64,000 nucleotides of DNA, taken from NCBI GenBank assembly GCA_032718475.1, contig JAUCBJ010003673.1, positions 1 to 64,000 of the forward strand, in the 5' to 3' direction. The notes beneath the pieces are model-generated. The model saw only the letters and a list, made by a program, of their open reading frames with translations. It had not been told where the DNA came from and ran no database searches. Position 1 is the first letter of the stretch. Every line of letters starts with the position of its first letter. The translations under genes were made by a program, and so were the position numbers. The stretch is from Nemertoderma westbladi. Lineage: Eukaryota; Animalia; Xenacoelomorpha. This document shows positions 19,426 to 48,374 of this stretch, one piece after another.

Positions 19426-19665
19426 TCCTGCATCTTTCCGATTGATTTGCTATAGGTGGTAAGCTACCTTACGGTTGCTATTGAATACAGTCCTCCTTAC
19501 AGATGGATTTAATCTGTATTCTAATACAGTAGCAGTTATGACCTGTACTGCAAACGAATGTTATTGTATATGTGTTTAACATCCATAGATTGTATAAATT
19601 ATAATTAATTAAACAGGACTAAGGATGATCCAACTCTATAGCAAATGGAGCGGAAAAAATGAATT

Positions 19666-23668: not shown

Positions 23669-23986
23669 TGCTCAGTAGCTGCCTAGTTCATCTACACAGC
23701 AGCACAGGCCAGGAATAGAGTACTACATCTAGGCCTACAATCTAAATCCACTTATATTATAAATTCTGAAATTTATTCAAAAATAAATTCGTAATTCTAA
23801 TTATTTTAAAATTTAGTTTATATAAATTGCGCCCCGTACCGTATACAACTTAGAACTTACCATCCACCATCCAGAGCACTCTTGTAGTTACTGGTGGTCA
23901 CTGATTGAAAGCTGAAGTTACATTTTCATTGTATCAAATTGTATTACTCACCTAATCGGATCAATAATAATCGAAATAATTTAGAT

Positions 23987-27960: not shown

Positions 27961-28390
27961 ATTGTGAATTGTATATGAATACTACAGTAGGTGGTGTAAC
28001 ATATGGTGGGACCATTTTATTTTGATTACCAGGTGAAATGTTTTTGGAAATGTGTTAGATATCAAACGTGCAACTGCAAAGCACTGCGTGCCAACGTGCA
28101 AAATGTGCAACTATCAAACTAGTTAGGAACCTGGCAATTCCGGTAAAATTCCGGCCGGAATTGACCCCATTCCGGCAATTCCGGCCGGAATCGGGCAAAA
28201 ACCGCCGGAATTCCGGCCGGAACGGAATTCCGGGACATCCCTAATTGTGTGCAAAGTAGCACTTTGCGAGATTATTATGTACCGAGCGCAGCGAGGGAGG
28301 TTTACATACATAAACAAGGGTCTTTAACGTTGAAAAGTGACCTTTGCAAGCAATGATGTATGTAATTTTGTTACATTAAATTTTGTACTT

Positions 28391-31025
28391 CATTTTGTTC
28401 TTATAGTTCCGCCCGTGGCTACATTTTGTTCATATAGTTCCGCCCGTGGCTACATTTTGTTGTTATAGTTGCGCCCGTGGCTACATTTTGTTCTTATAGT
28501 TCCGCCCGTGGCTACATTTTGTTCATATAGTTCCGCCCGTGGCTACATTTTGTTCTTATAGTTCCGCCCGTGGCTACATTTTCTTCTTATAGTTCCGCCC
28601 GTGGCTACATTTTGTTCTTATAGTTCCGCCCGTGGCTACATTTTGTTCATATAGTTCCGCCCGTGGCTACATTTTGTTCTTATAGTTCCGCCCGTGGCTA
28701 CATTTTGTTCTTATAGTTCCGCCTGTGGCTACATTTTGTTCTTATAGTTCCGCCCGTGGCTACATTTTGTTCTTATAGTTCCGCCCGTGGCTACATTTTG
28801 TTCATATAGTTCCGCCCGTGGCTACATTTTGTTCTTATATTTCCGCCCGTGGCTACATTTTGTTTTTATAGTTCCGCCCGTGGCTACATTTTGTTCTTAT
28901 AGTTCCGCCCGTGGCTACATTTTGTTCATATAGTTCCGCCCGTGGCTACATTTTGTTCTTATAGTTCCGCCCGTGGCTACATTTTGTTCTTATAGTTCCG
29001 CCCGTGGCTACATTATATCCTTATAGTTCCGCCCGTGGCTACATTTTGTTCTTATAGTTCCGCCCGTGGCTACATTTTGTTCTTATAGTTGCTCCCGTGG
29101 CTACATTTTGTTCTTATAGTTCCGCCCGTCGCTACATTTTGTTCCTATAGTTCCGCCCGTGGCTACATTTTGTTCTTATAGTTCCGCCCGTCGCTACATT
29201 TTGTTCTTATAGTTCCGCCCGTGGCTACATTTTGTTCTTAAAGTTTCGCCCGTGGCTACATTATGTCCTTATATAGTTCCGCCCGTGGCTACATTTTGTT
29301 CTTATAGTTCCGCCCGTGGCTACATTTTGTTCTTATAGTTCCACTCGTGGCTACATATTGTTCTTATAGTTCCGCCCGTGGCTATATTTTGTTCTTATAG
29401 TTGCGCCCGTGGCTACATTAACTTCTTATAGTTCCACCCGTGGCTACATTTTGTTCTTATTGTTCCGCCCGTGGCTACATTTTGTTTTTATAGTTGCGCC
29501 CGTGGCTACATTTTGTTCTTATAGTTCCGCCCGTGGCCCTATATTTTGTTCTTATAGTTCCGCCTGTGGCTCTACATTATGTCCTTATAGTTCCGCCCGT
29601 GGCTACATTTTGTTCTTATAGTTCCGCCCGTGGCCCTATATTTTGTTCTTATAGTTCCGCCTGTGGCTCTACATTATGTCCTTATAGTTCCGCCCGTGGC
29701 TACATTTTGTTCTTATAGTTCCGCCCGTCGCTACATTTTGTTCTTATAGTTCCGCCCGTCGCTACATTTTGTTCTTATAGTTCCGCCCGTCGCTACATTT
29801 TGTTCTTATAGTTCCCCCCGTGCTGCCGTGGCTACATTTTGTTCTTATAGTTTCGCCCGTGGCTACATATTGTTCTTATAGTTCCGCCCGTGGCTACATT
29901 TTGTTCTTATAGTTGCGCCCGTGGCTACATTAACTTCTTATAGTTCCGCCCGTGGCTACATTTTATTCTTATAGTTCCACCCGTGGCTACATTTTGTTCT
30001 TATAGTTCCGCCCGTGGCTACATCTTCTTCTTATAGTTCCACCTGTGGCTACATTTTGTTCTTATAGTTCCGCCCGTAGCTATATCGTGGTCTTAGAGTT
30101 CCACCCGTGGCCCAACATTAACTTCTTATAGTTCCGCCCGGGGCTACATGTTGTTCTTATAGTTCCGCCCGTGGCTACATTTTGTTCTTATAGTTCCGCC
30201 CGTAGCTATATCGTGGTCTTAGAGTTCCACCCGTGGCCCAACATTAACTTCTTATAGTTCCGCCCGTGGCTACATTTTATTCTTATAGTTCCACCCGTGG
30301 CTACATTTTGTTCTTATAGTTCCGCCCGTGGCTACATCTTCTTCTTATAGTTCCACCTGTGGCTACATTTTGTTCTTATAGTTCCGCCCGTAGCTATATC
30401 GTGGTCTTAGAGTTCCACCCGTGGCCCAACATTAACTTCTTATAGTTCCGCCCGTGGCTACATTTTGTTCTTATAGTTCCGCCCGTGGCTACATTTTGAT
30501 CTTATAGTTCCGCCCGTGGCTACATTTTGTTCTCATAGTTCCACCTGTGGCTACATTTTGTTCTTATAGTTCCGCCCGTGGCTACATTTTGTTCTTATAG
30601 TTCCGCCCGTGGCTACATTTTGTTCTCATAGTTCCACCTGTGGCTACATTTTGTTCTTATAGTTCCGCCCGTGGCTACATTTTGTTCGTATAGTTCCGCC
30701 CGTGGCTACATTTTGTTCTCATAGTTCCACCTGTGGCTACATTTTGTTCTTATAGTTCCGCCCGTGGCTACATTTTGTTCTTATAGTTCCGCCCGTGGCT
30801 ACATTTTGTTCTCATAGTTCCACCTGTGGCTACATTTTGTTCTTATAGTTCCGCCCGTGGCTACATTTTGTTCGTATAGTTCCGCCCGTGGCTACATTTT
30901 GTTCTTATAGTTCCACTCGTGGCTACATTTTGTTCTTATAGTTCCGCCCGTGGCTACATCTTGTTCTTATAGTTCCACCTGTGGCTACATTTTGTTCTTA
31001 TAGTTCCGCCCTGGCTACATCTTGT
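28391..31025. repeat. 31-bp tandem satellite (about 85 units)
   Basis: Unit CATTTTGTTCTTATAGTTCCGCCCGTGGCTA. Confidence 0.98.
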
Positions 31026-31900
31026 TTAATGATGCCGCTTCTGTGCTACCAGGGTCTGGTGGCAATAGCAACAGAAATATGAGCTATACTCTTCCAGGTT
31101 GGAATGAGTACGTACGACCATTCAAAGAAGATGCTATATTCTGGCATAGTTTATGGTTATCCGCAGGAAAACCTAATGCGAGTTCGGGTAATTTATTCCA
31201 CATGAGACGTACTTCTAGAGCACAGTATAAGTTTGCTGTGCGTAGACTGACAAGAAAAGTAGACTTCATAAATAAGGATAAGTTACTAAATGCCTGTTTA
31301 ACAAATTCTAGTATTAATATATTTTCAGAAATACGTAATTTAAGAGGCAATAGCTCCACTGGTTGTAGTTCTACTGCAGACGGTGCAACTGATGATATTT
31401 CTATTGCTAATGAGTTCGCTTCTATATATAGGGATTTATTTAATAGAGGGTACGACTCTGATTTATCATTTATTGAAAGTAGTATTAATGAACAAATTTC
31501 TAGTTTAAATTCATCGGTTTGTGATTTAATTACACCGGAATTAGTTACTTGTGCACTAAATAAGTTGAAATCTGCTAAGTCAGATGTCGATAATATTCTT
31601 AATTCAGACTGTTTAAAGAACGCTAACGTTGATTTAGCTGAACATCTTTCTAACCTATTCAATGCATTTGTAGTACAGGGATATGTACCATTATTTTTAT
31701 TGCGTTTTGCTCTTGTACCAATAATTAAAGATAAACTTGGGAGTATGACATCTTCTACTAATTATAGGGCTATTGCGATTTCATCATTAATTATTAAAGT
31801 GTTTGAATGGGTTATACTAATTTCTCATGAAGATAACTTTAAATTAGATGAACTACAGTTTGGTTTCCAGCGCAACTCTAGTACCACTATGTGTAGCTGG
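31026..31900 (+). mobile_element. LINE A (RTEX-like, clade tentative), 5' portion of pol
   Basis: LPGWNEYV...FWHSLW linker, then RT N-terminal motifs LVPIIKDK, NYRAIAISSLIIKVFE and QFGFQRNSSTTMCSW. The frame continues after the insertion at 49301. Confidence 0.88.
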
Positions 31901-32177
31901 TGTAAACACCCTAACACTCGGGTCCCCAATGCGACAAGGTGAGCTGACTGCCTTGGCAGATAAGCTTTCTCTTAGCGCAGTGGGTGTTCAAGAGTTCCGA
32001 ATGCAGACTGGACAGACTGATGAGGTTCTGATTAAGGACATGGGGGGCGGTTGGCGACTCGCCCTCGCGTCAGCAGAAGATAGTGGCAATGGTGGAATTG
32101 GTCTATTGATGAATCCAACTGCACATGCAGCATTGGACAAAATAGACCAAATCTCTAACCGCATCATCCGTTCATCA
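31901..32177 (+). mobile_element. RTE-like LINE B, APE endonuclease N-terminal fragment
   Basis: VNTL...AVGVQEFR...GNGGIGLLM...ISNRII are APE-type endonuclease motifs. The fragment begins right after the TSD GTAGCTGG (31893-31900). Confidence 0.8.
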
Positions 32178-33746
32178 TGTTCAGTAAAACATATTCCTAC
32201 TAAATGAAGAGACAGTAACAAATACACGAATCCTGCAATATCATACTATAAAGTTTGTGAATCAAATCATAAATCCGACCTTCTCACCAAAACAGTAAAC
32301 TCCAAGTAGGCGAATATATTGCAGTATCGGTCTCTTATAACCGGTGAGGCAGAAAACAGTCTACGAACGGACAAACTTCGATAAAACAAAATCCCGCGCA
32401 GCGAATCCTAAAATCAGGCTGACTCACTGACGGACTAAGGGGCTTGTATACTTTGCCGCGGTGTGATTTATATGGTTGGGCGAAAAGGACGCTAGCTAGG
32501 TGCAGAGATCTGGAGATGTCTAACTAGCGGGCAAAGTGCAGTACGGACAAAAGTTAATTTTATATATTTTGAGGTGTAAATAATTTCTAACGCGCGTGTG
32601 TTAATTCTGAACCGTCAAGATCAGTTTTGCTCCTTCATATATATAATTACTGGGTACGGTGTGCATTTTACGAATATTCTAATTTTGTAACTTGTAGGTC
32701 CAATACTCACGAATGATAAGGCTCCTTCCCCTCTTGCGTATTTCCCCTACAAGTTCTAATGCAATGGACACCGTTGTACTACAAATAGTCACAGACGCAC
32801 CTGTACTTAGCAAGAGTTAGGCGTACAGTTTGCTGCACCCTACCAATGTGTATGCTTTGTACCGGTGTGCCTACGTCCTATCTGCGTACTAGTATCTCTG
32901 CCTGCTTCCCCCGTAGGAATATGAAGGTCTACTGCGGTTTTTTCCTGAATTAAAACAGTACAGTCCCTAGATGTAATTTTAGGCGTACAGCGTGTCACTA
33001 CCTCTACCTTCGATCTGGGCGAATAACTAAGAGTGATATTGCGGGTTGTCTCCTGTCTACATTCCTTAGATGTTCCCGTTCATTGCTGTGGCCCGATGTT
33101 TAGCCAGCCATCCTGTCCCTCAGTTGAGTTCACCGTGGTGAAGCATAGTAAAACAGATAGAAAAAGGGCAGATTAGCGATAATTCTGACTTTATTACAGA
33201 AGATATACATAAACGTAACAAGAAACTAATAGATAACTAATAAAGATAATCTAAAGCACGAATGATTGAGATATAGACTGAGGTTTAGATATAACTAATG
33301 AACGAAATCGCACCTTTTATACCAAATTTGTGCCGCAATCAATCGAGAAAATTCTCGATTGTTCTATGAGTTCTAACAGGTTTTTAAAGATAGCTATTGG
33401 TCCAACGAATATATAACTTGTACGACATTGGTTACAATCTAATAACTACAATCTCATTGGTTAATCTTACTTCGAGCAAATGCAATTAATTTGTAGCGGT
33501 CAATTTAAATGAGTTGAAATTCTGCACGCACAAAAAATAATTCGCACCTACTAGGATTCGAACTCAATACACACTACATATAATTTCCAACGCTCTACCG
33601 ACTGAGCTACTGAACCACTTGAATAATCATCGTACAAATAGATATAGCAAATACAAATGAGGACTTAATGTAATCTTTTAACAAAGTTAATTCGAATAAA
33701 ATAAAAATTTTGAAAATCCACGGCATTTAGAGAATATAATTCTATA
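32178..33746 (-). repeat. 3' LTR (about 1.57 kb)
   Basis: Near-identical to 46434-48374 apart from two larger indels. Sense termini are TATAGA...CTGAACA, preceded by the short purine-rich GGAGCGG. Confidence 0.93.
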
Positions 33747-34387
33747 CCGCTCCATGAAAACAGGATATTATCGTGCATAAAATATACGGTTTTCACCAAT
33801 AATCAATCAAATTATAGAATACTTAGGGCGTACTTACATATTTACAAATTAAATTTCAAACAATACTTCCTTTCTACATAATGATTCGATACAAAATAAT
33901 TACAAATTCAAACTTTACATATTTAAAGCTTTACTAAGTAAGTACAATATAAATCTAAATTAAATTCACCAAAATAAATCTATTTCATCTCGATATTGCG
34001 AAATTCAAATAATTACAAATACAAATAAATGAAAATCATAAGAAAGGCTCGCGAGTCTTCCATCTACTATTGCATCTCAAATATTGCACTTAGACTTAAA
34101 TTCAAGTAATTACAAATACCTTGTGCCTAAATGTAGATTGCATAAGTTCGGAATAATTACAAATATGAGTCTTTCTAAGTACAAAACTTTCTAACTATAA
34201 AACCTTCTAAATACAAAATATAACACTTTACAAATGAAACTATAAGAAAGGCCCATGAGTCTTCCATTACAAACTCCGTTACAAACCGTACCGTTACAAA
34301 CTTACTAAATATAAAATATATAACTCAAATAAATCACAAATTCACAAGAAAGGCTCACGAGTCTTCCGTCCACCCTTGCCCTCCCTT

Positions 34388-37300
34388 TTATCGCTTAGTA
34401 GATCGAGCCCTGCCGCGTCCTCGAAAACTGCGCACAGGTGACTTTGCTCGCGATATGGGACTCGTGGGGCGAGTCACTGGTTTTGCTTGTACATTGGGAG
34501 ACGGTGCGACCGTTTCCTCACAAATTCGTCTATTTGGTATCCCAAAACCTCGACCGATTCCTCGTGACCGATCAGTTGTCACTACAGTTGGTAAAACGTC
34601 TGGGAACGCGCGGGAAGCGGACGACGCAGACCCAAGAGTAGCTTGCGCCCCCTTTTGATCAGCTGGTGTATGTCCCGATCCTCCTGTTGGTTCTCTAGGA
34701 AGCGATACCGTATCCCGAGTAATTCGAATGGTCGGCTCAACTCCCTTGCGTTCTTCTATATTAATAGACTTCTTTAATTGTTGGCTCACTTTCTGGACCC
34801 TTATGATCCTACCCTGCCCGTCCTCCCGAGGGTGACGTGCAGACGGCGCAACCGGAGTGGCTGGTATATTTGTCGCCTCTAGGATCTCCTCTTCCTCGAA
34901 TACGCTCGCTCGTATACGTTTGTGGTAAAACGCGGCTCGGTATGCCCACGCGACGGTTAACCAAGCTCCCTTATTCCGCCTTTCAGTTCGGAAACGATCA
35001 AATTCACCATACGTGATACGATTCACAACTTTCTGAAAATTCCACGTATTTTTATTGTCCGGGTGAATCTGTAACAGATACTCGCGCACCACTCTAAATC
35101 CACTATCGTGAGGCAAAATATCGACTACCTCGATAAGTTCGTCATATTGGGGCATAGCGGAGATGTATCCTTCCGACATCATCGTTTGGGGATTTACCGC
35201 CCAAAATCCAAGATGCGCTCTCATCGGAAATCGTCTTCTATGTGCCGATACATGTTCGTCGGCTAAATCTTCCCACTCATCGAATAGTTTTCTCACGAGT
35301 TTTACAGATTCGTGTTCATAAGGTATGTCTCTTAGTTGGCATTCAGATGCTCGATGCCCTTTTATATTGCAATAAGTACATTGAGCCATAAATCTCCAGC
35401 AAGTATAAAAGGTATGAGACCCTTGATCTCCACACCATCCACAGATTAGTTGAGTCGTAGTAATGTGCTTTCCACTGCACTTGGTCAAATGATGTCCAGC
35501 GACGCCACATTTACTACACATCGTATTGGCAGGGTACCACACTCGTTCGTATATAAGATCTCCAATTGGTCGAGCGCTTCCTCCCACACTATAATCATAA
35601 TCATCTGGATCTATGGGTTGGTATGTTTCTGAAGGTTGTATACAAACTACAGCATCTGTTGCTTCAAGTTGTCGAATCTCCGTCTGAGATTTCTTCGGGA
35701 GGTTCCTTTCTATCTCAAGAAGTTCCTCTAAAGGATCGTCAGTGATCGTTGTCGTTACTTCGAAATCACCACCAAGGTGACCGATAGGCGCGCGCGTCTG
35801 CCGTGATTCATCCATAACCTCCACGATACGTTCTCCTTCATAGGGTAACAATGTAAACATAGATGGTCTTTCGATAAGAGATCCCGCACAGCGAAGATAC
35901 ACGTCTCGAAATATACTAAATCCTGCTCGAGTAAAGGCATTACACTGAGCGTCGGAGTTGTAGAAGGGTTCAAGAAATCGTCTAAACACGTCGGTATGAA
36001 TTCTCCCTTCCATGTAGAACATATGATCTTCTCCGAGACAAAGTGGATGTCTTTTAAGAGTCCGAGACACAATGTCGGCGATTAAGCAAACATTCACTGA
36101 CGACTCTATTGCTAAATAATATTGTAAGACCGCTCTTGGAGGTGACGTAATAGCCCAATACACGCATCCTCTCCATTTGAGCTGTGATTCAAACTCACTC
36201 ATATCTGGAGTATCACCTTCTCCATAAGTCTCAATATACTTAGCTCTCTTACTTTCCTTATAATCCCAATTGAATAACAGGTAGGAAATGTAACCAGCTC
36301 CAGTCTTCTGAGTAATATTCTCACGAAAATATCCCTGTTCTATAGACCACAAAATAAGAGGTCGAGTGTCGACGTACGGTGTCGGTAGTCGGTCATCGCT
36401 GTCCGTCATGCCGGCAAAGTCGCTAATTAAGTCCTCTCTTACTCCTGATCCAATCTTTACGACAGTTTTATCTAAAATCATATTTCTTACCATCTTCGGT
36501 AGCATTCTAGCATCGATATTACAAGCTTGGTCCATCTTCTTTACTATGTCAGTGATGAGATGGTGTCGCTTTGTATTTGCTGGAGGTATCGGCATTCGTT
36601 TGTCGCTCCTCTGTCTACTGAAAACGTGCAAGACTCCGTCCGCCGCTCTAATTTGTATAGTCTTAGAAGTCAAACTCTGTTGATGACTGCCGCCCTCGTT
36701 ATCGTAAAACATGTAACCATTTTCCTGAAACGATCTAAACGTTCTATTCCATTCGTCCAACAATTCTTCCGAAGGTTGCCAAATCTTCTCTATGTCCTTA
36801 TCATCTTCGAAACGAATAACCTTACCTCGCCAATCCATGGCAATATCTGTATCCGACTCGAAGGTTCCAGTTCCAATCCATAAACGAATTGTTCTGGTTA
36901 AATATCCTTTCAAATTACTCGGAGCTATATCAGCACCAGCTCTATCCAGTTCCCTAAAGTCTTGAATATGAGGTGGAACGTTATACACGACCTTTTGAGT
37001 AATATGTCTACGTAAATCATATATCTTACTCATATCGCTAAAAACAACTGCAGGAAGGAACTCCAAGTTTGAAATGATTTCTGGATGATCCACGATGGGT
37101 ATTTCGTACGTCGTATCCTGTCGGACTGGTATACTAATAGGAAAATTGAGTGTCGTACTCAATGGTTTCGTAGTCGAAGTACTATATGGTTGCATTTCTC
37201 TTGTCCTCTCCGGGGATGCAATCTGTAGTCTCTGAATAACGTTTTGAGCAAAGTTTATGCTCTCGAAAACTTCCGGTGTCATCTCCTTAGCTGGAGTTTG

Positions 37301-38221
37301 ATCGTGTGACGTCCAATGGTAAGGTAGGCTCGCGAGTCTTCCGCCCCATTCTACCATCTCACCTTTCTCGAAAGCCTTGTAGGCTCTGTATAGGCTAAGA
37401 GCTTCTTTCTTTTCGCGGGTTGACTGATTCGCCTCGTCCAGCATAAGTTCAAATGCATCGGGTTCAACAACCTTAGGTGGGTAAACGACAGTTTCTCCCG
37501 CCTTTGGTCCAGTCATAGCAAACGAATGATATGGATTTGATAAAGGATACCCTCCTTCCTGGTAGCGTAGTTGTTGATGGTTCGAACACCTCGCCAATAT
37601 CGGTTCGGGATTTTCCTTATTCAAACGCATTGGAATCGCATTTCGTTGTTCGCGCATACAAGAACCGCATTGATAATAAAGTTTATAAACTGAAAATGCT
37701 TCCTTGGTTTCTCTATCATCCCCTCGAGTTCGTCTGTAAAGGTGCATTCCATCGAATTCATCGCGTACCGCAGGCATAGGTTCGTGCGCCTTTAGGTATT
37801 GCATGGTATGATACAAACGACTAATTTCAGTATCGGGGTCTTCGCTAATGTCTCCCGTATCACACAAAGCGTCGTACGGGTAAAGTTCATTGAAGGTTTT
37901 GCACAAACTTTCGATTCTTTCATTTAATGCGTTTTGCCTTCTCTTTAATACATTCGAGTCATATTTAGTTCTCGCGAGTTTCGCAGTACTTTCTGATAAT
38001 TCCTTTATACCAAATATAGTGTAGTCTTTGGCTCCAAATCTCTCGAATCGCGCTGCTGCTTCCTCTTGGATATCATATCCCCATCTCGGCTCTCCATGTA
38101 TCTCCTTCTCCATAATTAGAGGTGTAGTTACATAATCATTACTACTAGAGGGAATACAACAGAGTTTGTAGTTAGTTGTGAGGAGACGTGAGAGTTTTCG
38201 TCTGCCCTTTTGGCTCGACAA
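34388..38221 (-). CDS. Retrotransposon extra ORF: DnaQ-like (WRN/EXD2-type) 3'-5' exonuclease domain plus three CCHC zinc knuckles
   Basis: ExoI YMFYDNEG, then TIQIRA, LPKMVRNMILDKTVVKIGSGVREDL (ExoII), YVDT and ExoIII-like QYYLAIES. Knuckles are CSKCGVAGHHLTKC, CGWCGDQGSHTFYTC and CTYCNIKGHRASEC. The called start is TTG; the first ATG is at 38113. Confidence 0.78.
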   Translation of the reverse strand: MSSQKGRRKLSRLLTTNYKLCCIPSSSNDYVTTPLIMEKEIHGEPRWGYDIQEEAAARFERFGAKDYTIFGIKELSESTAKLARTKYDSNVLKRRQNALNERIESLCKTFNELYPYDALCDTGDISEDPDTEISRLYHTMQYLKAHEPMPAVRDEFDGMHLYRRTRGDDRETKEAFSVYKLYYQCGSCMREQRNAIPMRLNKENPEPILARCSNHQQLRYQEGGYPLSNPYHSFAMTGPKAGETVVYPPKVVEPDAFELMLDEANQSTREKKEALSLYRAYKAFEKGEMVEWGGRLASLPYHWTSHDQTPAKEMTPEVFESINFAQNVIQRLQIASPERTREMQPYSTSTTKPLSTTLNFPISIPVRQDTTYEIPIVDHPEIISNLEFLPAVVFSDMSKIYDLRRHITQKVVYNVPPHIQDFRELDRAGADIAPSNLKGYLTRTIRLWIGTGTFESDTDIAMDWRGKVIRFEDDKDIEKIWQPSEELLDEWNRTFRSFQENGYMFYDNEGGSHQQSLTSKTIQIRAADGVLHVFSRQRSDKRMPIPPANTKRHHLITDIVKKMDQACNIDARMLPKMVRNMILDKTVVKIGSGVREDLISDFAGMTDSDDRLPTPYVDTRPLILWSIEQGYFRENITQKTGAGYISYLLFNWDYKESKRAKYIETYGEGDTPDMSEFESQLKWRGCVYWAITSPPRAVLQYYLAIESSVNVCLIADIVSRTLKRHPLCLGEDHMFYMEGRIHTDVFRRFLEPFYNSDAQCNAFTRAGFSIFRDVYLRCAGSLIERPSMFTLLPYEGERIVEVMDESRQTRAPIGHLGGDFEVTTTITDDPLEELLEIERNLPKKSQTEIRQLEATDAVVCIQPSETYQPIDPDDYDYSVGGSARPIGDLIYERVWYPANTMCSKCGVAGHHLTKCSGKHITTTQLICGWCGDQGSHTFYTCWRFMAQCTYCNIKGHRASECQLRDIPYEHESVKLVRKLFDEWEDLADEHVSAHRRRFPMRAHLGFWAVNPQTMMSEGYISAMPQYDELIEVVDILPHDSGFRVVREYLLQIHPDNKNTWNFQKVVNRITYGEFDRFRTERRNKGAWLTVAWAYRAAFYHKRIRASVFEEEEILEATNIPATPVAPSARHPREDGQGRIIRVQKVSQQLKKSINIEERKGVEPTIRITRDTVSLPREPTGGSGHTPADQKGAQATLGSASSASRAFPDVLPTVVTTDRSRGIGRGFGIPNRRICEETVAPSPNVQAKPVTRPTSPISRAKSPVRSFRGRGRARSTKR

Positions 38222-38774
38222 CGCTCTAACCTCCTACCCATAGCCTAAGATCTAGGGTTTCTTTAATGACACGCTGCTTCTTATCTAAAATTTTTTGCCG
38301 AAATAAAAACGAATTTAGGCTAAACTGGCTGTGAGTCTAAAATACTCACCTTTTGATCCCAAACTATTATCAGAAAATAAGCAGTCAAGAATTAGTAATA
38401 AATATAGGGAAGTCTATTTTGACGTAACTTATTGAAACAAGACCGTGTAAAATTTAATTAAAATTTTTAAGAAAGGCTCGCAAGTCTTCCTCTCTTGTTT
38501 CTCTAATTTTAAGTTCCACCCCACTGTACCCTGAAATCTATTCACTGGAGAAAATTTTAAAAATTTTTCAAATCCAAATGGATTGTCTAAAATTTCGAAA
38601 ATGTCTCAATATTGTGAGTTCCAAGTAGAATTCCATTTCTTATACCTACAAATCCCGCTCCTATGTGACACATAAGGGTACTACCCTCAATGTTCACATA
38701 TAAAGACAATGGAATTCTACCGCTGTCCTTACTACAGTGTACAGGTACGTGGAAATCTATTTGTAAACTCCTAA

Positions 38775-41447
38775 TTATTTACTAACATTTGTTGGAGATT
38801 TGTAGTCTCCAGACTCGTTTCGAGTCTCTTCAAGAAGTACGAGACGTTGAGTCGGTCTGTCTACTGTACGACCGTCAATTGTCCGTACCGTCACAGTTCT
38901 TGTTACTCCATCCATAGATGGATGTGTGTCTAAAATTACACCTGTTATCCAGAAGCGTCTTTTTAGATTCACTTCTGCTAACAGCACGTGATCTCCCGGC
39001 TTTAATGCGCGGGTGTTATTGTACCATGTTGTTCTGGCAGAAATAGAGGGCAAATAATGGTTTTGCCATATTTCCCAGAATTTGTTAGCTAGTAGTTGCG
39101 TGATTTTCCACGCTTTTCTACCGTAGCTATCGCCTTCCATTGGAAAAGAAATAGGCGTCAAAGTAGTCGGTGCCTGCATAAGCAGGTGTGCCGGTGTCAA
39201 AGCAAACTGGGATTGTTTGTCATCGGGTACTAATACTATTGGTCTAGTATTTAGTATTGCCTCGATTTCAACAAATAGTGTTGTCAGTTGGTCGTCTGTC
39301 AATATGTGGTTTACTGGAATGACCTTTGCCATGGCTGTTTTTATAGATCTAATCAATCTCTCCCAGACTCCGCCTCTCCATGGACTATCTGGAGGATTAA
39401 ACTTCCAAACAATCTTGTAAGGACGTAGTTCGTTTGAGATTTGATCATGATCTAATTTCTTAAAGGCTCTAGCAATTTCATTTCGGGCACCAACAAAGTT
39501 TGTCCCTTGGTCTGAGTACAAGCATTTCACTAGTCCGCGTCTAGCGATAAATCGCCGCAATGCTAGTATAAACGCGTTGGTGGAAAGATCCATCACACGT
39601 TCAATATGAACTGCCCTACTGGACATACATGTGAAAATCAGTCCCCAGCGTTTTACTAGTATACGTCCACGTTTCGTATGTATGGGACCAAAGCAATCAA
39701 TTCCAGTCTCTGTAAAAGGTGGTCTGAATGCTTGAAGTCGTGCTTGTGGAAGTTCACTCATTTCTTGAGTACCTATTCTAGAGTGTACCTTTTTACAAAT
39801 AATACACGTACGTGTCACTGAACTTAACGCTTTACTGGGTCTAATTAATACAAATCTTGTACGTAAGTAGGAAAGACAGTGGTGTCTTCCAGCGTGTTTC
39901 AGATGTAAATGTGCGTCCAGTATCATTGCATGTTGTAATTCGTGATGCTGCGGTATTATTATTGGGTATCTAAAGTTTGTGTTAAAGTCAATGTTTTGAA
40001 GCCGAGATTTATGACAAATTAAGCCATTATAAATTATCGGACTCCAACTCAATATTGGTGACGACTTGATTGGTTGACCTTGATTTATAGATGTGAATTC
40101 GCGTGCGAAATATCGCAGTTGGTAATGGCGAATTAATTTAATTTCACACCTGTCAATCTCAGTCAATGTAAGTCGACGTGTAAAGTCGCGTTTGCCTTTA
40201 ACGTATTGTACAAAACGTACAATCCACGCTAATTTTCGGCAAGCGTTTGTCCAAGAGTCTGTTAGGTTTACAATACGGTCGACGTAAGTATTTGTGACGT
40301 CATCAGGTAAGTCAATGGAGAATTTGGAAGGTTTTGATTTACTAGAAGGGCCCACGGGTCCGCCGGTAGGTATTCCCTTGTTGACTGTTAATCCGTCCGG
40401 GTCTACAAGTAATTTGTCCTTCTTTGTTTTCTTACCTTGATTGTCAGTACTTTGTAAGTCGATCGTTAATGGTGGTTTGAACTCTATGGGGTCACTGGGT
40501 TTCGGTAAACTTATTTTTCTGCCGATATTAATCCCAGGTCTCACCATAGGTTGCAAGTTTGGTATGTCTCTTGAGCGCAAAGTAACACCTGTATTTACAT
40601 TAGCGTAGGTACTACCCACATCTGTAATACATGAGGTTTCACTGTGCTTATGGTTACTCAAGTGTGTCAAATTTGGTAGTTTGTCAATACAAGGCCGCTC
40701 CAATAGAGAAACTGCGGCTTTACTATTTGTCAATATGTTACTAGTGTCTGGTAGAACATTTTGTGACATGTCTGGTAGAATGTTTCGCGGAACATCCGGC
40801 GAAATATCTAGTGACGTGTCTGGCAAAACGTCTGGTTGACCGTCTAGTAACGCGTCTGGCGATACGTCTGGTAACGTGTCTGGTTGTTTGTCAATAGAAG
40901 GCCGCTCCAATAGAGAAACTGCGGCTTTACTATTTGTCAATATGTTACTAGTGTCTGGTAGAACATTTTGTGACGTGTCTGGTAGAATGTTTCGCGGAAC
41001 ATCCGGCGAAATATCTAGTGACGTGTCTGGCAAAACGTCTGGTTGACCGTCTAGTAACGCGTCTGGCGATACGTCTGGTAACGTGTCTGGTTGTTTGTCA
41101 ATAGAAGGCCGCTCCAATAGAGAAACTGCGGCTTTACTATATGTCAATAGGTTACTAGTGTCTGGTAGAACATTTTGTGACGTGTCTGGTAGAATGTTTC
41201 GCGGAACATCCGGCGAAATATCTAGTGACGTGTCTTGCAAAACGTCTGGTTGACCGTCTAGTAACGCGTCTGGTTGACCATCTAGCGATATGTCTGGTGT
41301 AGAAAGGCTCGCAAGTCTTCCGGCGTTATCATCTGTCATCGATGGAATCTCTGGCTGACTCGCCTTCTCCCCAAGTTCTAAACTCACCTGGTGGATTAGC
41401 TGCTCCTTGTGACTTATCGTATTAGCTACACACGTCGTACTTGTCAT
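38775..41447 (-). CDS. BEL/Pao integrase preceded by a low-complexity repeat region
   Basis: HHCC (HLHLKH...CIIC), DDE triad (TGIDCFGP, YSDQGTNF, GGVWERLIRSIK) and BEL C-terminal FWEIWQNHYL. No RT or RNase H motifs. Confidence 0.92.
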   Translation of the reverse strand: MTSTTCVANTISHKEQLIHQVSLELGEKASQPEIPSMTDDNAGRLASLSTPDISLDGQPDALLDGQPDVLQDTSLDISPDVPRNILPDTSQNVLPDTSNLLTYSKAAVSLLERPSIDKQPDTLPDVSPDALLDGQPDVLPDTSLDISPDVPRNILPDTSQNVLPDTSNILTNSKAAVSLLERPSIDKQPDTLPDVSPDALLDGQPDVLPDTSLDISPDVPRNILPDMSQNVLPDTSNILTNSKAAVSLLERPCIDKLPNLTHLSNHKHSETSCITDVGSTYANVNTGVTLRSRDIPNLQPMVRPGINIGRKISLPKPSDPIEFKPPLTIDLQSTDNQGKKTKKDKLLVDPDGLTVNKGIPTGGPVGPSSKSKPSKFSIDLPDDVTNTYVDRIVNLTDSWTNACRKLAWIVRFVQYVKGKRDFTRRLTLTEIDRCEIKLIRHYQLRYFAREFTSINQGQPIKSSPILSWSPIIYNGLICHKSRLQNIDFNTNFRYPIIIPQHHELQHAMILDAHLHLKHAGRHHCLSYLRTRFVLIRPSKALSSVTRTCIICKKVHSRIGTQEMSELPQARLQAFRPPFTETGIDCFGPIHTKRGRILVKRWGLIFTCMSSRAVHIERVMDLSTNAFILALRRFIARRGLVKCLYSDQGTNFVGARNEIARAFKKLDHDQISNELRPYKIVWKFNPPDSPWRGGVWERLIRSIKTAMAKVIPVNHILTDDQLTTLFVEIEAILNTRPIVLVPDDKQSQFALTPAHLLMQAPTTLTPISFPMEGDSYGRKAWKITQLLANKFWEIWQNHYLPSISARTTWYNNTRALKPGDHVLLAEVNLKRRFWITGVILDTHPSMDGVTRTVTVRTIDGRTVDRPTQRLVLLEETRNESGDYKSPTNVSK
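40681..41298 (-). repeat. 207-bp (69-aa) coding tandem repeat, about 3 copies, built from 12-bp subunits
   Basis: AAGGCCGCTCCAATAGAG recurs at 40691, 40898 and 41105; the peptide has PDxx periodicity. Confidence 0.92.
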
Positions 41448-41507
41448 GTTGTCGTGTTTTATCGACGCTTGTGTAGTATAGTCTCGGTCGTGTGAAAGGG
41501 AATGAGT

Positions 41508-42848
41508 CTAAGTTGTAGTTAATAAACTACATGTACTTTGTATATCGTCTTCCTCGTCACTTATATCCAGTGTGCGCACAGGCGCTCGAGTATACCACCC
41601 TATCGGCGTTCTACAGGCGTATGTGTTTCCCGCTACGACTGCCGATGGTCTGGTTTCCCACACTTGATGTAGGTTGAATTGATCTGTCCCGATCAGCATT
41701 GCTACCGACCTATAGTTGACAGGACATTCAGGTACACCAAGGTGTCTGAAGTACTTACGGTCCTCCAAGGATTGTTCTGGGACAGGACCTAGTAGGTTAC
41801 TAAAGTCCTTTGTGGCCGGAAAGGTTAAATCTTTAAAGGGTAACAAAGACCTCTCCTTTTCGCTATGTTGCGATTTCGGAAGAAGAGTGTCTAAGTTCAA
41901 CTTAACTCGTGTCACTGGTATTGCACGTTGTCCATGCATACTACTTACGGTGTAACTGACGTTCTTACCTTGTCGGAGATCCGTCACAACATCAGCTACT
42001 TTCTCATCCACGTAGCTATGAGATGAGGCTGAATCCAGGATAGCGTAGATCCTTTTGCTCCCTTTGGTGCCAGTAATCTTGACAGGAATTATACTAAACC
42101 CCTTTAGTTGATCAGGCGTCAGAAGCGCAATCGATGGTTGTTCGTCTCCAGTATCAAAGTAAACGTCTTCGTCTTCCGACTCTTCATCCGACGATCCTGA
42201 TTGTTCCGAGAAGCAATCTCTAATGTATGTCACGAAAGTCGGTGTTGTTTTTGACTCTCGACCCTTATATGCTGTGTTGCATCTTGCTGCCGCTTCCGGG
42301 TGTTCCCTGGTGAAGCGTTTGGTCGGCGTATGACTGTCTGTGTGGAGCAAACCGTCATGGTTGCGTCCACAGGAAGGACAGATGTCTGTATTTGGGCAGT
42401 CTTTACGGACATGTCCATGTAGCGTACACCGCCAACAAGAGTCCAATGGCCGTATTTGCAGTCGTTGTTCCTCCGAGTTCAATTCGCGGAATAGTCGACA
42501 ACCTCTCAGTTTATGGCTAGTATGTCGTTTACCTAGCCGTTCGCAATATTGGCAACTGCTAAAGTCTGTGCTCAGTTGCTGTCGGATCTGTTTGGTTCCA
42601 ATTGGTGCGGATACCTTATTACTGTCCGAAAATTGTCGGGTGTCGGTCGATGTTGCGTAGGTAACCGTCTTTGTGGATGTCATCGGTGGTTTTTGTCTGT
42701 TGGAGGATGGTAAGGTTATTCCTTCTGCCACAATATGTTGGTCCGTGTAGTTCGAACGCGTCTCGACTACTGCCTCTCTGGATATCATTAAGTAGACGTC
42801 TTCCAACTTCAAGAATCCGCCCCTCTCTTCTCGCTGATATTCTATCTT
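41508..42848 (-). CDS. BEL gag C-terminus (three zinc knuckles) and aspartic protease
   Basis: CQYC..H..C, CWRCTLHGHVRKDC, CPSCGRNHDGLLH, protease YAILDSASSHSYV, MLIGTD and RTPIGW. In frame with both neighbouring ORFs across single stop codons. Confidence 0.9.
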   Translation of the reverse strand, partial: KIEYQREERGGFLKLEDVYLMISREAVVETRSNYTDQHIVAEGITLPSSNRQKPPMTSTKTVTYATSTDTRQFSDSNKVSAPIGTKQIRQQLSTDFSSCQYCERLGKRHTSHKLRGCRLFRELNSEEQRLQIRPLDSCWRCTLHGHVRKDCPNTDICPSCGRNHDGLLHTDSHTPTKRFTREHPEAAARCNTAYKGRESKTTPTFVTYIRDCFSEQSGSSDEESEDEDVYFDTGDEQPSIALLTPDQLKGFSIIPVKITGTKGSKRIYAILDSASSHSYVDEKVADVVTDLRQGKNVSYTVSSMHGQRAIPVTRVKLNLDTLLPKSQHSEKERSLLPFKDLTFPATKDFSNLLGPVPEQSLEDRKYFRHLGVPECPVNYRSVAMLIGTDQFNLHQVWETRPSAVVAGNTYACRTPIGWYTRAPVRTLDISDEEDDIQSTCSLLTTT

Positions 42849-45644
42849 TCACCACTCCCGACGAAGTCGATGGTGTAATCTTCCTATTATTTTCAATAGG
42901 ACTGTCGGAGTGTTCGCGTAGTCAAGTTGTCCAATCGAGCGTAGTGTAGTAATGGCGTTTTTAATCTCGTCAGCTAATTTCAGTAAGTCAACGGGTTTTG
43001 TTATAGCCCCCCCCTTACAGAGTTCTTCTATCACTGACTTAGCCATGCTTACAGTGCCTCCGTAAATCGAAGTTAAGCGATCGTACGCTAGTTCGAAGGC
43101 GTCTGGTACACCGACAAAGGTCTCCGCTAGACGTTTCGGTTCTCCCGTCAGCGTTTGTAGCAGGTAGTTGAATTTCTCCCTCGATGTAAAGGCGCACGTT
43201 GCTATTTGGGTTTCGATGTAGTCCACAAAGGTGTGCCAATGTTTCGAGTTACCGGAAAACTTAGGTGGTTGTTGCACCGGTAATCCTTGTCTGGCTGCGA
43301 ATTTCGCTATCTCCTCGGCCACGTTCAAAGTTTCGCGTCCTTGGTTGGCAATCGAGTTGATGTTCTCTCGTCTTGGCGCTTTTCCTTGATACGAGGTGTT
43401 TCTCGAGGGTTGTTTTCTTTGCTGCTTCGGGTGTCTAGAGTGTTCGAACTCGTTACCTCGCGAACTATCAGTTTGAGTTTCTTCTAAACGTTCTTCTATC
43501 TGGGCCAACTTGTCTACAACTGGTCGCATTAGATCGGCGAATTGTTGCGTACTAATCGCGTCTGTTGGTTGTAACGCTTTCTGTGTTGGTGTATTGTGTG
43601 GAGGATTATCGATAAAGGAGTTATCTGAACGCTCACGTTTATATTCGTCGGCCGCTCCTGTTCTAAATACCTCGCGTTCCGGGTAATCCGACTCGCTTGA
43701 AGTACTACTGTCACCTGGATACGGTGGTCGACGTGCTCGCGTCCGTTGTGTCGTTCGAATTCTAACATTCCGTTTCGGAACATCATCCACTGTTCTCCGT
43801 TGTTTGGTAGGCTCACAAGTCTTCCTCGAAGTTGTAGATTGCGATGTAAACTGATTAAACGGTGGTCGAATGACAGCGTTTGAATCTAAAGGCCTTGTAG
43901 GCCTAAACGTCATTGGGTACGTGTAATGCATAACGGGTTTTGGTGTCGAAGGTGGACTCACCTGTTTTGTCGTCAGTGGTGCAGGTCCGGTCAACAAACT
44001 ACTACGATCTGTAATCGGTGGGTTACTTACCTTGACTTTCAGAATGGGCGACGACGTTGCTCTTGGCGGTGTAAACTTGTCCGGAATAACAAACCTGTGT
44101 TCCGTCGCACCATGGATAGGAGAAATATTACTACTACCAGCAATCGAAACAGGTTCCTTAGTCGTAATCGGTGCAAACATAGGAGTTACTTGAGGGAATC
44201 TTTGACATAAGTCTTTTACCAATTGTCTTTCTCGCCCAGGTGCCCCTACACTTCCTTCCTTCATTCGTTCCTGAATTTGGCGGTGCCTTACCTCTATCTG
44301 GTCCAAATCATGTCCGTCACGAGATCTCATCGATCGATCGCAGGCTTGTAGATCCAGATCTTCCTTCGCGTTGGCTAATTCTCTCGCCTTCTTCTCGAGT
44401 TCGAAATGAAGTTTAACTTCTTTCTCGCGTTGTTCCGTCTGTTGTTGTTGCGCCTCGAACTCCGCTTGTCGTATAGCTGATTGAGCCTTTATTTGCCGTT
44501 TTTTCATCTCAGCTCTTACTTCCGAAATACGCTTGTGTTCTTCCAACGCTGCTGCTCGTCGCTCTAAATCAGCCGCTGCCGCTTGTCGTTCCAACTCAGC
44601 TGCTGCCGCTTGTTGCACTAACTCAGCTGCCGCTGTTCGCTGTGCTATTTCTAGCTCCAACCTTTCCATCTCACCCGCTTCCAACTCGGCTTGTTCTTGC
44701 AGCTGAGAGATTCTCGCAACATTTGCAACGCGTAGTTTTTCTTCTTCTACCGCCGCTTGTGCCGTCAACAGTTGAGTTTGTTCCTCAATTTCCCGTTGTT
44801 GTCTATAGTGCTGTTGTTGCTGTCTGGAAATTTCTGACGTCACTATACTTACCTCGCCAATTTCGCTGCGAATACTCACTAACGATTGGTCCAGTATTCC
44901 CGGTGCCGATTCGATTTGTACGGGTGAAGTTTCCCTCGTATATTCCGGCACGGTTTCCAAATCGCCGACGTCTTCGCCGCACATACGTAAGTGGTCCGTC
45001 AGATGTTTCAATTGTCCATCCAGTCGGTACAGTTCCTGTTCTTCCTCGGGCTGCAATAATTCGTCCGAAACTGACTCACCTAACAACTGGTCCGCTTGTT
45101 CCTGTTGTATCTGCCTAATCGTCGACTTAAACTGAATCAGTTTCTCTCTAGCGATCATTAGTTTCTCGAGGATTCTAAGTTGAGTATCCACGTCCTGTCT
45201 CTGTCTAGCTAGATCTTGTAGACCAATTAGATTATCTACGGACTTATGTACTCTACTTTGTACTCTAACCTGGAGGGTGTAGAACTCAAACCGAGACATC
45301 GGAGCGGTTAACTCGTCTAATATGCGTTGGCCTTCCCCAATACTCCTGGTAATATGCGCCATGTAGCCTCCGACGCTTCTAACCACACTCTCCTGGCTTC
45401 CTACTGAACTTACCATGTCCGTTTCCCTGTATCTAGGTTGCGGAACAGTTAGAAAGTCCTCGGTCCTGCCGTCGCCTCGTACTACGGCATCCGGTACTCC
45501 CGTTGGATGTACTGGTGACGCACACGGTGTAGGTTCGGTAGGCTCGCGAGTCTTCCCCTGTAGTTCTTCCGCTGCTGACTTATCTCCGTCGCATGAGTCA
45601 TAGTCGGTAGGTGTATTCTTCGTATAGTCTTGTTTGTCACTCAT
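42849..45644 (-). CDS. BEL gag N-terminal part (coiled coil plus DUF1759-like capsid region)
   Basis: PPKFSGNSKHWHTF...EKFNYLLQTLTGEPKRL...AYDRLTSIYG is the BEL gag signature. Ends at an in-frame TGA within gag. Confidence 0.88.
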   Translation of the reverse strand: MSDKQDYTKNTPTDYDSCDGDKSAAEELQGKTREPTEPTPCASPVHPTGVPDAVVRGDGRTEDFLTVPQPRYRETDMVSSVGSQESVVRSVGGYMAHITRSIGEGQRILDELTAPMSRFEFYTLQVRVQSRVHKSVDNLIGLQDLARQRQDVDTQLRILEKLMIAREKLIQFKSTIRQIQQEQADQLLGESVSDELLQPEEEQELYRLDGQLKHLTDHLRMCGEDVGDLETVPEYTRETSPVQIESAPGILDQSLVSIRSEIGEVSIVTSEISRQQQQHYRQQREIEEQTQLLTAQAAVEEEKLRVANVARISQLQEQAELEAGEMERLELEIAQRTAAAELVQQAAAAELERQAAAADLERRAAALEEHKRISEVRAEMKKRQIKAQSAIRQAEFEAQQQQTEQREKEVKLHFELEKKARELANAKEDLDLQACDRSMRSRDGHDLDQIEVRHRQIQERMKEGSVGAPGRERQLVKDLCQRFPQVTPMFAPITTKEPVSIAGSSNISPIHGATEHRFVIPDKFTPPRATSSPILKVKVSNPPITDRSSLLTGPAPLTTKQVSPPSTPKPVMHYTYPMTFRPTRPLDSNAVIRPPFNQFTSQSTTSRKTCEPTKQRRTVDDVPKRNVRIRTTQRTRARRPPYPGDSSTSSESDYPEREVFRTGAADEYKRERSDNSFIDNPPHNTPTQKALQPTDAISTQQFADLMRPVVDKLAQIEERLEETQTDSSRGNEFEHSRHPKQQRKQPSRNTSYQGKAPRRENINSIANQGRETLNVAEEIAKFAARQGLPVQQPPKFSGNSKHWHTFVDYIETQIATCAFTSREKFNYLLQTLTGEPKRLAETFVGVPDAFELAYDRLTSIYGGTVSMAKSVIEELCKGGAITKPVDLLKLADEIKNAITTLRSIGQLDYANTPTVLLKIIGRLHHRLRREW

Positions 45645-46433
45645 TTCGGTAGTTGTAAGTCAAGTAAAATGTGAGTGTCAAAGTATCAAATTTACCGTAT
45701 TTATATTTAAACGGTACTAATTACAGTCATATAAAATTAGCCTACCGGCCGATTTTATAGCAGATGGATAAAATTAGCCTAAGCGGCCAATTTTACAGCA
45801 AATAAATGTCACGGAATAAGTATATAATAAAATTAGCCTAGCAGCCAATTTTATAACAAATAAATCGGATAACGATATGCGTTATCAAAAGGTAAATTAA
45901 ATACAATAATACGGACTAATTCAGCAATGAACAAAGAAATCGTACAGAATGCATAAATACTTGAGACAGTGGAACCCACAATAATTTTAACTAATACGGT
46001 AATGCCTAACTTATTTATGCAACTTTTCAAACTCACCCACTCCAATGATTCTCCAGAAAAACAGATTCCCAGATACAAACCGGACGTGAACCTTTCCGTT
46101 TCCAGCGTTGCGGACGAAGTGCGATTTTCCCAACCAAAGTTGTTGGGTTATCTATCTCCCAAACTTGCTAAACACGGTCTTGCTCTCGTTACAGTCTAGA
46201 AATGAGTTCTGAATCCTGAAAAAACAAAAGAGTTAGGTTTTACTTTTACGAAAATTTTGTACCGGTACAATATGGTATTTAAACCCTTTTAAACACCGGT
46301 ATTCAATTCCAAAATATTTTACACGCGGTTCAAATCAAATTTTATTTCAAAAAATTAGCACTTAGCTAATCAAATATAAATTTTACCTCAAAATACAAAA
46401 ATTTTCAAATAACTTTAGTCCTACCGAACCGTA

Positions 46434-48374
46434 GTTCAGTAAAACATATTCCTACTAAATGAAGAGACAGTAACAAATACACGAATCCTGCAATATCATA
46501 CTATAAAGTTTGTGAATCAAATCATAAATCCGACCTTCTCACCAAAACAGTAAACTCCAAGTAGGCGAATATATTGCAGTATCGGTCTCTTATAACCGGT
46601 GAGGCAGAAAACAGTCTACGAATGGACAAACTTCGATAAAACAAAATCCCGCGCAGCGAATCCTAAAATCAGGCTGACTCACTGACGGACTAAGGGGCTC
46701 GTATACTTTGCCGCGGTGTGATTTATATGGTTGGGCGAAAAGGACGCTAGCTAGGTGCAGAGATCTGGAGATGTCTAACTAGCGGGCAAAGTGCAGTACG
46801 GACAAAAGTTAATTTTATATATTTTGAGGTGTAAATAATTTCTAACGTGCGTGTGTTAATTCTGAACCATCAAGATCAGTTTTGCTCCTTGATATATATA
46901 ATTACTGGGTACGGTGTGCATTTTACGAATATTCTAATTTTGTAACTTGTAGGTCCAATACTCACGAATGATAAGGCTCCTTCCCCTCTTGCGTATTTCC
47001 AGGACTCAAATTCAGGCATAAGATTAATGCTACGCCCAGAATTCGGCAATTTTAATTTACCAGGTCCCTAATACTAAGAAGAAATGTGTTAGTTTACTAC
47101 AGTAGGCGTACGGTTACTAATAGCTAGCCTGGCGTCCTATCTAGAATTTTGGTTACCTAGGTGGGCTTGGTAACTTCCTATCAGGATGTCGGCGGGGACA
47201 CGGTAGATGTTAGTATCCCTAAACAGCCTCAATTTATTTGCGCCTAGTCGTAAACTGCCCTACCGCCTGAACGGTACAATCCTAATTCAGGTGAAACACA
47301 GTAACCCTCCTGGCCTACAAGTTATAATGCAATGGACACCGTTGTACTACAAATAGTCACAGACGCACCTGCACTTAGCAAGAGTTAGGCGTACAGTTTG
47401 CTGCACCCTACCAATGTGTATGCTTTGTACCGGTGTGCCTATGTCCTATCTGCGTACTAGTATCTCTGCCTGCTCTCCCCCGTAGGAATATGAAGGTCTA
47501 CTGCGGTTTTTTCCTGAATTAAAACAGTACAGTCCCTAGATGTAATTTTAGGCGTACAGCGTGTCACTACCTCTACCTTCGATCTTTGGTCTTATACTTA
47601 GGTAGCAAGGCATCGAACGCTGTCTAACCTTTCAGGCGATGGGCGAATAACTAAGAGTGATATTGCGGGTTGTCTCCTGTCTACATTCCTTAGATGTTCC
47701 CGTTCATTGCTGTGGCCCGATGTTTAGCCAGCCATCCTGTCCCTCAGTTGAGTTCACCGTGGTGAAGCATAGTAAAACAGATAGAAAAAGGGCAGATTAG
47801 CGATAATTCTGACTTTATTAAAGAAGATATACATAAACGTAACAAGAAACTAATAGATAACTAATAAAGATAATCTAAAGCACGAATGATTGAGATATAG
47901 ACTGAGGTTTAGATATGTATAACTAATGAACGAAATCGCACCTTTTATACCAAATTTGTGCCGCAATCAATCGAGAAAATTCTCGATTGTTCTATGAGTT
48001 CTAACAGGTTTTTAAAGATAGCTATTGGTCCAACGAATATATAACTTGTACGACATTGGTTACAATCTAATAACTACAATCTCATTGGTTAATCTTACTT
48101 CGAGCAAATGCAATTAATTTGTAGCGGTCAATTTAAATGAGTTGAAATTCTGCACGCACAAAAAATAATTCGCACCTACTAGGATTCGAACTCAATACAC
48201 ACTACATATAATTTCCAACGCTCTACCGACTGAGCTACTGGACCACTTGAATAATCATCGTACAAATAGATATAGCAAATACAAATGAGGACTTAATGTA
48301 ATCTTTTAACAAAGTTAATTCGAATAAAATAAAAATTTTGAAAATCCACGGCATTTAGAGAATATAATTCTATA
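46434..48374 (-). repeat. 5' LTR (about 1.94 kb)
   Basis: Direct repeat of 32178-33746, with extra segments at about 47001-47313 and 47586-47640. Confidence 0.93.

Follow-up and report, generated by a model that had tools for sequence, protein, structure and literature searches.

What does the long open reading frame (ORF) in the env position of a BEL/Pao retrotransposon encode, and what might its product do for the element? The question is raised by a 64,000-nucleotide stretch of the Nemertoderma westbladi genome (assembly GCA_032718475.1, contig JAUCBJ010003673.1, positions 1 to 64,000 of the forward strand; hereafter the window), in which a 16.2-kb minus-strand element bounded by direct long terminal repeats (LTRs) carries a further frame, ORF3, behind gag and the integrase. 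A first-pass annotation of the same DNA had described this frame as an intact 3'-5' exonuclease/zinc-knuckle gene. The analysis reported here makes it highly probable that ORF3 is a selected accessory gene of the element with a predicted exonuclease-knuckle product; its task can be proposed only tentatively.

The minus strand is free of stop codons from 38233 to 34388, i.e., over 1281 codons from stop to stop, and the probability of such a frame arising by chance, estimated from base composition, is about 1e-34. Its first ATG lies at 38113, and the product counted from it has 1241 amino acids (34388..38113; all coordinates of the element refer to the minus strand). The uninterrupted frame was thus described correctly by the first-pass annotation, but its length of 1277 codons was not, being counted from a TTG at 38221; the stretch upstream of the ATG is probably not coding, since a splice acceptor falls at 38145/38144 and a 1-nt indel segregates at 38195. 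ORF3 indeed lies between the integrase (stop at 38775) and the 3' LTR (33746-32178), and all the motifs named earlier were found in place: YMFYDNEG (36715-36692), KIGSGVRED (36457-36431), QYYLAIES (36124-36101), three CCHC knuckles (35518-35339; CX2CX4HX4C, CX2CX5HX4C and CX2CX4HX4C) and a CxxC-x23-CxxH motif (37577..37669). The latter belongs to a 400-residue N-terminal region for which phmmer and Pfam yielded no homolog. It is followed by a predicted DEDDy-type 3'-5' exonuclease (36050..36760, with D471/E473 in ExoI, D561 in ExoII and Y666/E670 in ExoIII), an acidic linker, the knuckles with a conserved block downstream of them (E..A....R...GF..Y..L; together 34920..35518), and a basic tail rich in Pro, Ser, Thr and Gly, the last stretch of which is rich in Arg, Gly and Ser (34388..34915). 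Neither a signal peptide nor a transmembrane helix was evident from a hydropathy scan (19-residue window, peak value 1.38) and inspection of the N-terminus, which is hydrophilic, in agreement with the earlier description, and an env fusogen was rejected as the identity of ORF3 on these grounds.

The homology of the middle domain to DEDDy 3'-5' exonucleases is well supported at the level of sequence profiles. A phmmer search with ORF3 among 1.84 billion representative proteins returned five matches, two of which (P0001 and P0005) were dropped from the family as matching through the knuckles only. The other three (P0002, P0003 and P0004, unnamed proteins of 558-715 amino acids from ENA assemblies) lack the N-terminal region and the tail, but share with ORF3, at 20-25% identity, the full succession of domains, from the exonuclease through the acidic linker and the three knuckles to the downstream block. 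In all four members the Asp and Glu of ExoI, the Asp of ExoII and the Tyr of ExoIII are invariant, and the last acid of ExoIII is represented by Y-x3-D in the aligned column of P0002 and by Y-x3-E in ORF3, P0003 and P0004. When the four-member exonuclease profile was compared by hhalign with a profile of 11 RNase D/PolA-type domains, ExoI and ExoII came into register with a probability of 82%, an E-value of 9.9e-6 and a score of 41.7, while 200 column shuffles reached 20.9 at most. In Atlas, 24 of the 30 matches fell within the PF01612 set (171 features shared) with a score of 0.93, to be read against the 4-10% of shuffled proteins that attain 0.9. Weak matches to DnaQ epsilon (E 0.037), falling on ExoI, and to EXD2 (E 0.51) and the trypanosome enzyme TbRND, both falling on ExoII, point in the same direction; the match of the family profile to TbRND (E 0.005) is chiefly due to the knuckles and aligns ExoII weakly. 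The earlier assignment to the DnaQ/DEDDy family is therefore upheld. The remark that the ExoIII Asp appears to be Glu was accurate as to E670, but the residue is common to two of the three distant homologs and hence is a subfamily trait; its interpretation as decay was rejected, the more so as no listed variant changes E670.

Other searches with this protein were less informative. Word-based homolog searches with residues 400-960, with residues 340-720 (shorter proteins) and with the family alignment found nothing, no related locus was found among metagenome contigs, viral contigs and phages, and PHROGs gave no useful match. In sequence searches of the PDB the exonuclease domain alone was uninformative and P0002 matched knuckles only; Atlas gave at most 0.78 for residues 850-1080, with generic knuckles. 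No HRDC domain was matched by Pfam after the exonuclease, the protein being too divergent for this absence to count. Two AlphaFold2 models were of poor confidence (predicted local distance difference test values of 32 and 42), and Foldseek and VIA-align with the second one returned helical look-alikes only, which speak neither in favour of a DnaQ fold nor against it.

Is the gene maintained, and does it belong to the element? Five of the seven listed sequencing runs contain the window stretch or part of it, none of those listed being on record as RNA, and contigs from four runs span the element end to end, with a summed depth (which is not a copy number) of at least 1e4 in runs X1 and X2. These contigs cover the whole element, ORF3 included, so that the proposed linkage to a multicopy BEL element holds. 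Selection was assessed in the exonuclease region (35960-36800) with 40 of the 56 variant rows, those listed, from four runs and three samples; three rows sharing one codon were classed singly. Thirty of these 40 variants leave the amino acid unchanged, whereas 12.6 synonymous ones would be expected from the base changes involved (p = 2e-8), which corresponds to a ratio of non-synonymous to synonymous polymorphism (pN/pS) of about 0.15; even if all 16 unlisted rows are assumed to be non-synonymous, p is 5e-4. No amino-acid change at D471, E473, D561, Y666 or E670 occurs among the listed variants. Contigs about 83% alike run through 330-550 nt of the domain, interrupted by 0-2 gaps. The exonuclease is under purifying selection among copies.

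These data bear directly on the possibility that ORF3 is a passenger, for example a host gene acquired not long ago or a chimeric neighbouring sequence, of no benefit to the element. Such an origin would fit the lack of a target-site duplication, the flanks coming from different repeats and the defective state of this copy (see below). However, ORF3 is intronless, has contigs of high depth over it just as the other parts of the element do, is joined to the element's leader in run X4, contains the element's 21-nt motif described below, and its exonuclease is selected among copies, so we regard this explanation as largely refuted and very improbable. Nor was the idea of a gene "captured" from the host borne out, the sole homologs being the unnamed sequences mentioned above, which are known as proteins only.

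ORF3 is likely translated from a spliced, env-style messenger RNA (mRNA). Among the 15 of 273 joints shown, run X4 contains 46037->38144 and 47628->46215, both at canonical GT-AG sites with donors GTGAGT or GTTAGA and pyrimidine-rich acceptors; among the joints shown, neither appears for X1, X2 or X5. They delimit two likely introns, each seen in one X4 contig: intron 1 (46216..47628, GT-AG), leading from the interior of the 5' LTR to the leader, and intron 2 (38145..46036, donor GTGAGT, pyrimidine-rich acceptor), whose removal eliminates gag-pol and ends 31 nt before the ORF3 ATG. The depth of X4 contigs is high from 36171 to 33252 and drops beyond an AATAAA at 33195. These joints are most simply explained by a spliced RNA that connects the leader to ORF3, whether RNA itself or a processed DNA copy was sequenced.

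With somewhat less than an even chance, we favour the reading in which ORF3 is a selected BEL/Pao accessory gene, expressed from a spliced mRNA, whose product is a predicted RNA exonuclease trimming or destroying silencing RNAs. Transcription from the 5' LTR would give both genomic RNA and a spliced RNA devoid of gag-pol, and ORF3 would thus be made separately from Gag-Pol, as a soluble protein. By analogy with TbRND, the knuckles may grip single-stranded RNA so that its 3' end is passed to the D-E-D-E site; the basic tail may direct the protein to the nucleus or to RNA granules. The protein would then trim or destroy small silencing RNAs aimed at the element, and the choice of substrate is the least certain step, such a counter-silencing job being, at most, as probable as the reading as a whole. 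Mut-7 and Nibbler are trimmers of small RNAs. Analogous cases are TbRND, whose exonuclease is followed by four CCHC fingers and acts in guide RNA trimming (PMC7797062), and an arenavirus ExoN, which suppresses innate signalling (10.1101/2021.02.01.429129).

A number of observations weigh against this reading. As regards the enzyme, Pfam gives no exonuclease match for ORF3, the ORF3 sequence of the window alone reaches 0.4% in hhalign, ExoIII stays unaligned in the profile comparison and carries Glu in place of Asp, and the match to E. coli RNase D (6.6 bits) is exceeded by one shuffled control (8.0 bits). As regards the message, each splice joint is represented by a single contig with a short side of 25-30 letters and 85% likeness, and the type of run X4 is a guess ("DNA?"), a processed DNA copy looking identical. 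As regards maintenance, 10 of the 12 best-supported ORF3 differences in the whole-element comparison are non-synonymous, as are 11 of the 12 in gag-pol; nearly all other copies agree against this copy at most such sites, a pattern suggestive of decay confined to this copy. In X1, X2 and X4 there are contigs that lack about 2.0-2.1 kb of ORF3 (35829-37974), the exonuclease included: deleted derivatives without it exist in the element family. Finally, trimming nucleases of the DEDDy class often assist silencing rather than block it, and the only roles raised for the rotifer ORF3s are pro-silencing or 3'-end processing (PMC5408684).

A different role may involve a 21-nt quasi-palindromic motif, GGAAGACTYRYGAGCCTTTCT, eight copies of which (34041..45556) lie inside the element, all on the sense strand, with starts at 45556, 43825, 41321, 38490, 37342, 34367, 34265 and 34061. 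Its copies occur in non-coding DNA as well as in two reading frames, and none of 100 shuffles gave a match; the motif is a signal at the nucleic-acid level, not a repeat of the protein. As RNA it would fold into a weak hairpin (-2 to -6 kcal/mol), and it could equally be a dyad DNA site; the spliced ORF3 RNA contains four of the copies. The three 3' copies, 102 and 204 nt apart, are likely one old tandem array, and the central four bases of the motif vary as CpG decay of CGCG would. ORF3 might regulate the export, localisation or stability of the element's own RNA in a Rev/CERV- or Egalitarian-like manner, possibly with a weak or dead site, and may recognise this motif. Strong splice sites flank gag-pol, so that the element needs an export route for unspliced RNA, and CERV of Cer1, a spliced env-position protein, is required for genomic RNA export (PMC10309623); the repetition of the motif on the sense strand only, its possible hairpin, the Glu of ExoIII and the basic tail would agree with such a role. 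Yet three of the four acidic positions are invariant at 20-25% identity and the fourth stays acidic, which argues for catalysis, and Gag or a host factor could bind the motif instead of ORF3. We find this role doubtful, and less probable than the attack on silencing RNAs. Self-targeted counter-silencing, in which the spliced exonuclease-knuckle protein would dock on the motif and destroy guides of PIWI-interacting RNA (piRNA) or small interfering RNA (siRNA) type, or silencing tails, at that place, is quite improbable. If true, it would make ORF3 a nuclease-armed counterpart of Rev/RRE or VANC, and the founding member of an exonuclease-triple-knuckle family travelling with mobile elements.

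The termini of the element raise one more explanation, namely that ORF3 is a replication helper trimming the primer, RNA 3' ends or ends of complementary DNA in the course of reverse transcription or integration. The LTR begins with TA instead of TG, no TGG-type primer-binding site was seen by eye after the 5' LTR, and the K-x-G context of ExoII is PolA-like; rotifer ORF3s have been suggested to act in 3'-end processing (PMC5408684), as has the DEDDy domain of the Dada transposase (PMC3706591). On the other hand, no route into the particle is evident for a protein that is made from its own spliced message and is linked neither to the membrane nor to Gag, and most BEL elements manage their replication with no gene of this kind (PMC3118150). 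A helper function seems unlikely. The counter-silencing reading thus remains the preferred one at the strength stated above.

The assignment of the host element to BEL/Pao is based on its gag with DUF1759 and a triple knuckle, the integrase placed last in pol and the direct LTRs. The N-terminal part of gag (42849..45644; PF03564, E 1.3e-10) is closed by an in-frame TGA (42851-42849); the gag knuckles (42554, 42437 and 42380) and an aspartic protease (LDSAS at 42038) follow in the frame of gag (41508..42848) up to an in-frame TAG, and then come a low-complexity linker of about 414 amino acids, which includes three repeats of 207 nt, and an integrase of BEL type (together 38775..41507) with H2C2, GIDCFGP, SDQGTNF, GGVWER and DUF5641 (PF18701, E 3e-21; PF17921, E 5e-4). 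All these parts occupy one frame broken by the stops at 42849 and 41508. Reverse transcriptase (RT) and RNase H, expected between protease and integrase, gave no Pfam match or motif in any of the six frames of the element, which makes an RT-based placement impossible. The first-pass annotation mentions neither this nor the two stops, the lack of a target-site duplication and the eight copies of the 21-nt motif. The element itself is not intact: in view of the missing RT/RNase H and the two in-frame stops, this copy is a defective derivative that would need a helper to move. We infer that a deletion removed RT/RNase H from a longer master element, since the linker holds the element's 21-nt motif and an X5 contig departs from the window at 41513. 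The gap lies at the protease-linker junction (41508-41513), and the X5 contig, one in this run, has 32 letters unaligned where it leaves the window, which hints at a different continuation in relatives. Four element proteins had no exact-sequence match in the protein collection searched, and a sequence search of the PDB with the integrase gave nothing informative.

The 5' LTR (46434..48374, about 1.94 kb) has a TATA box at 47949, and its segments 47640-47586 and 47313-47001 have no counterpart in the 3' LTR (32178..33746, about 1.57 kb); otherwise the pair is 99.4% identical (10 mismatches in 1568 aligned bases). Of the TG...CA termini typical of BEL/Pao, only the CA that ends the 3' LTR is found. 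With its 16.2 kb and LTRs of 1.57 and 1.94 kb, the element exceeds the ranges given for BEL/Pao, 4.2-10 kb and 0.2-1.2 kb, respectively (PMC3118150). A purine-rich tract adjoining the 3' LTR (33747..33757) is likely the polypurine tract; an 11-nt complementarity between the post-LTR sequence and gag was set aside as near chance. The unique 3' region of the LTR contains a tRNA-like stretch (33545..33620; its A box, at 33609, lies within a hairpin resembling a D arm, and its B box is at 33563) with a twin in the 5' LTR (about 48173-48248), which was not called by ARAGORN or Rfam; tRNA-like LTRs are known from Helenus elements, which are small (PMC10886601), whereas here the boxes sit in a 16-kb coding element. 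No target-site duplication, of the 4-6 bp expected for BEL/Pao, was found at the element ends. On the plus strand, the right flank (31079-32177) is the 3' part of the RT of one long interspersed nuclear element (LINE), and the left flank (48375-49250) consists of a 270-bp piece of another repeat followed by the 5' part of an RT from a different LINE. Recombination between element copies is possible, and dating by LTR divergence was rejected because the flanks do not match.

How far is such a gene new? The rotifer LTR lineages Juno, Vesta, TelKA and Mag are gypsy-like, whereas the present element belongs to BEL/Pao. The first-pass annotation knew of no description of this architecture, but DEDDy ORF3s with a DEED motif have been published for the bdelloid LTR elements Juno1/2 and Vesta2/5, where they occupy the env position, and for Athena/Terminon elements (PMC5408684; PMC6431247); a DEDDy domain occurs in Dada transposases (PMC3706591) and is counted among well-known accessory domains in a 2019 opinion paper (PMC6338049). 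Like the rotifer ORF3s, the present one places an exonuclease after pol, has no transmembrane or coiled-coil segment and carries Glu at one acidic position; compared by description, it differs in having D-E-D-E and three CCHC knuckles instead of DEED and a Cys-His-Cys motif. The rotifer study found no departure from neutrality for the sequenced env and GDSL ORF3s and showed neither an activity nor selection on the DEDDy frames (PMC5408684), whereas selection is seen here on the exonuclease. TbRND (PDB 7c42; PMC7797062) likewise joins a DEDD exonuclease to a following array of CCHC zinc fingers, but is a cellular kinetoplastid enzyme of 351 amino acids that has four fingers and an active site of canonical DEDD type, while ORF3 has three knuckles, a longer acidic linker, the 400-residue N-terminal region and the basic tail. 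The likeness of the two architectures is probably convergent. With the PF01612 group (WRN-exo, EXD2, Mut-7/Nibbler and PolA) ORF3 shares DxE in ExoI, K-x-G-x4-D in ExoII and apparently Y-x3-[DE] in ExoIII; the K-x-G signature is a feature of WRN, EXD2 and Mut-7, and that of PolA was seen in our sequence comparison. Unlike this group, ORF3 falls below Pfam detection, has a longer ExoII-ExoIII spacing and, as in three of the four family members, Glu in ExoIII. CERV of C. elegans Cer1 (PMC10309623) is also a non-fusogen in the env position with a spliced mRNA (likely here) and a Cys-rich region; its element is of gypsy type and its exons are shared with gag, with no homology seen. Among the titles and opening lines of abstracts listed from a largely open-access literature, we found no exonuclease ORF3 in BEL/Pao and none with the triple-knuckle arrangement. 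The finding is not new in kind: BEL/Pao joins the groups that carry an exonuclease ORF3, here one with three knuckles, evidence of selection and a probable spliced mRNA, in an element along which a candidate cis-motif recurs.

Elsewhere in the window, long uninterrupted ORFs of the host (14896-18924, 23909-24970, 52571-53542, 54636-56375 and 62179-63228) encode a RhoGEF-PH-WD40 protein (1342 amino acids), an RDD protein, a kinase, a lamin and an FG nucleoporin, and the host genes are apparently intron-poor. Three tandem units of about 310 bp occupy 19280-19974, two of them with ARAGORN calls of tRNA-Asn of unusual sequence (19354-19425 and 19666-19737). Large satellite arrays with units of 32, 16 and 31 nt extend over about 1100-8000 (where the plus strand is nearly G-free), 9800-12500 and 28266-31000, and nested inverted repeats with 243-nt arms (91%) at 22582-23653 resemble a miniature inverted-repeat transposable element or a foldback element.

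The job of the nuclease ORF3s of retrotransposons has been open since 2017, when neither activity nor selection could be shown, and the present family adds selection on the exonuclease, a probable spliced mRNA and a motif that may act in cis, which makes the question directly testable. Carriage of an exonuclease now reaches beyond gypsy-like and Penelope-like elements, and its occurrence in BEL/Pao with a different architecture suggests repeated independent recruitment. If small RNAs are indeed its target, ORF3 would be a rare transposon-encoded suppressor of piRNA/siRNA silencing in animals.

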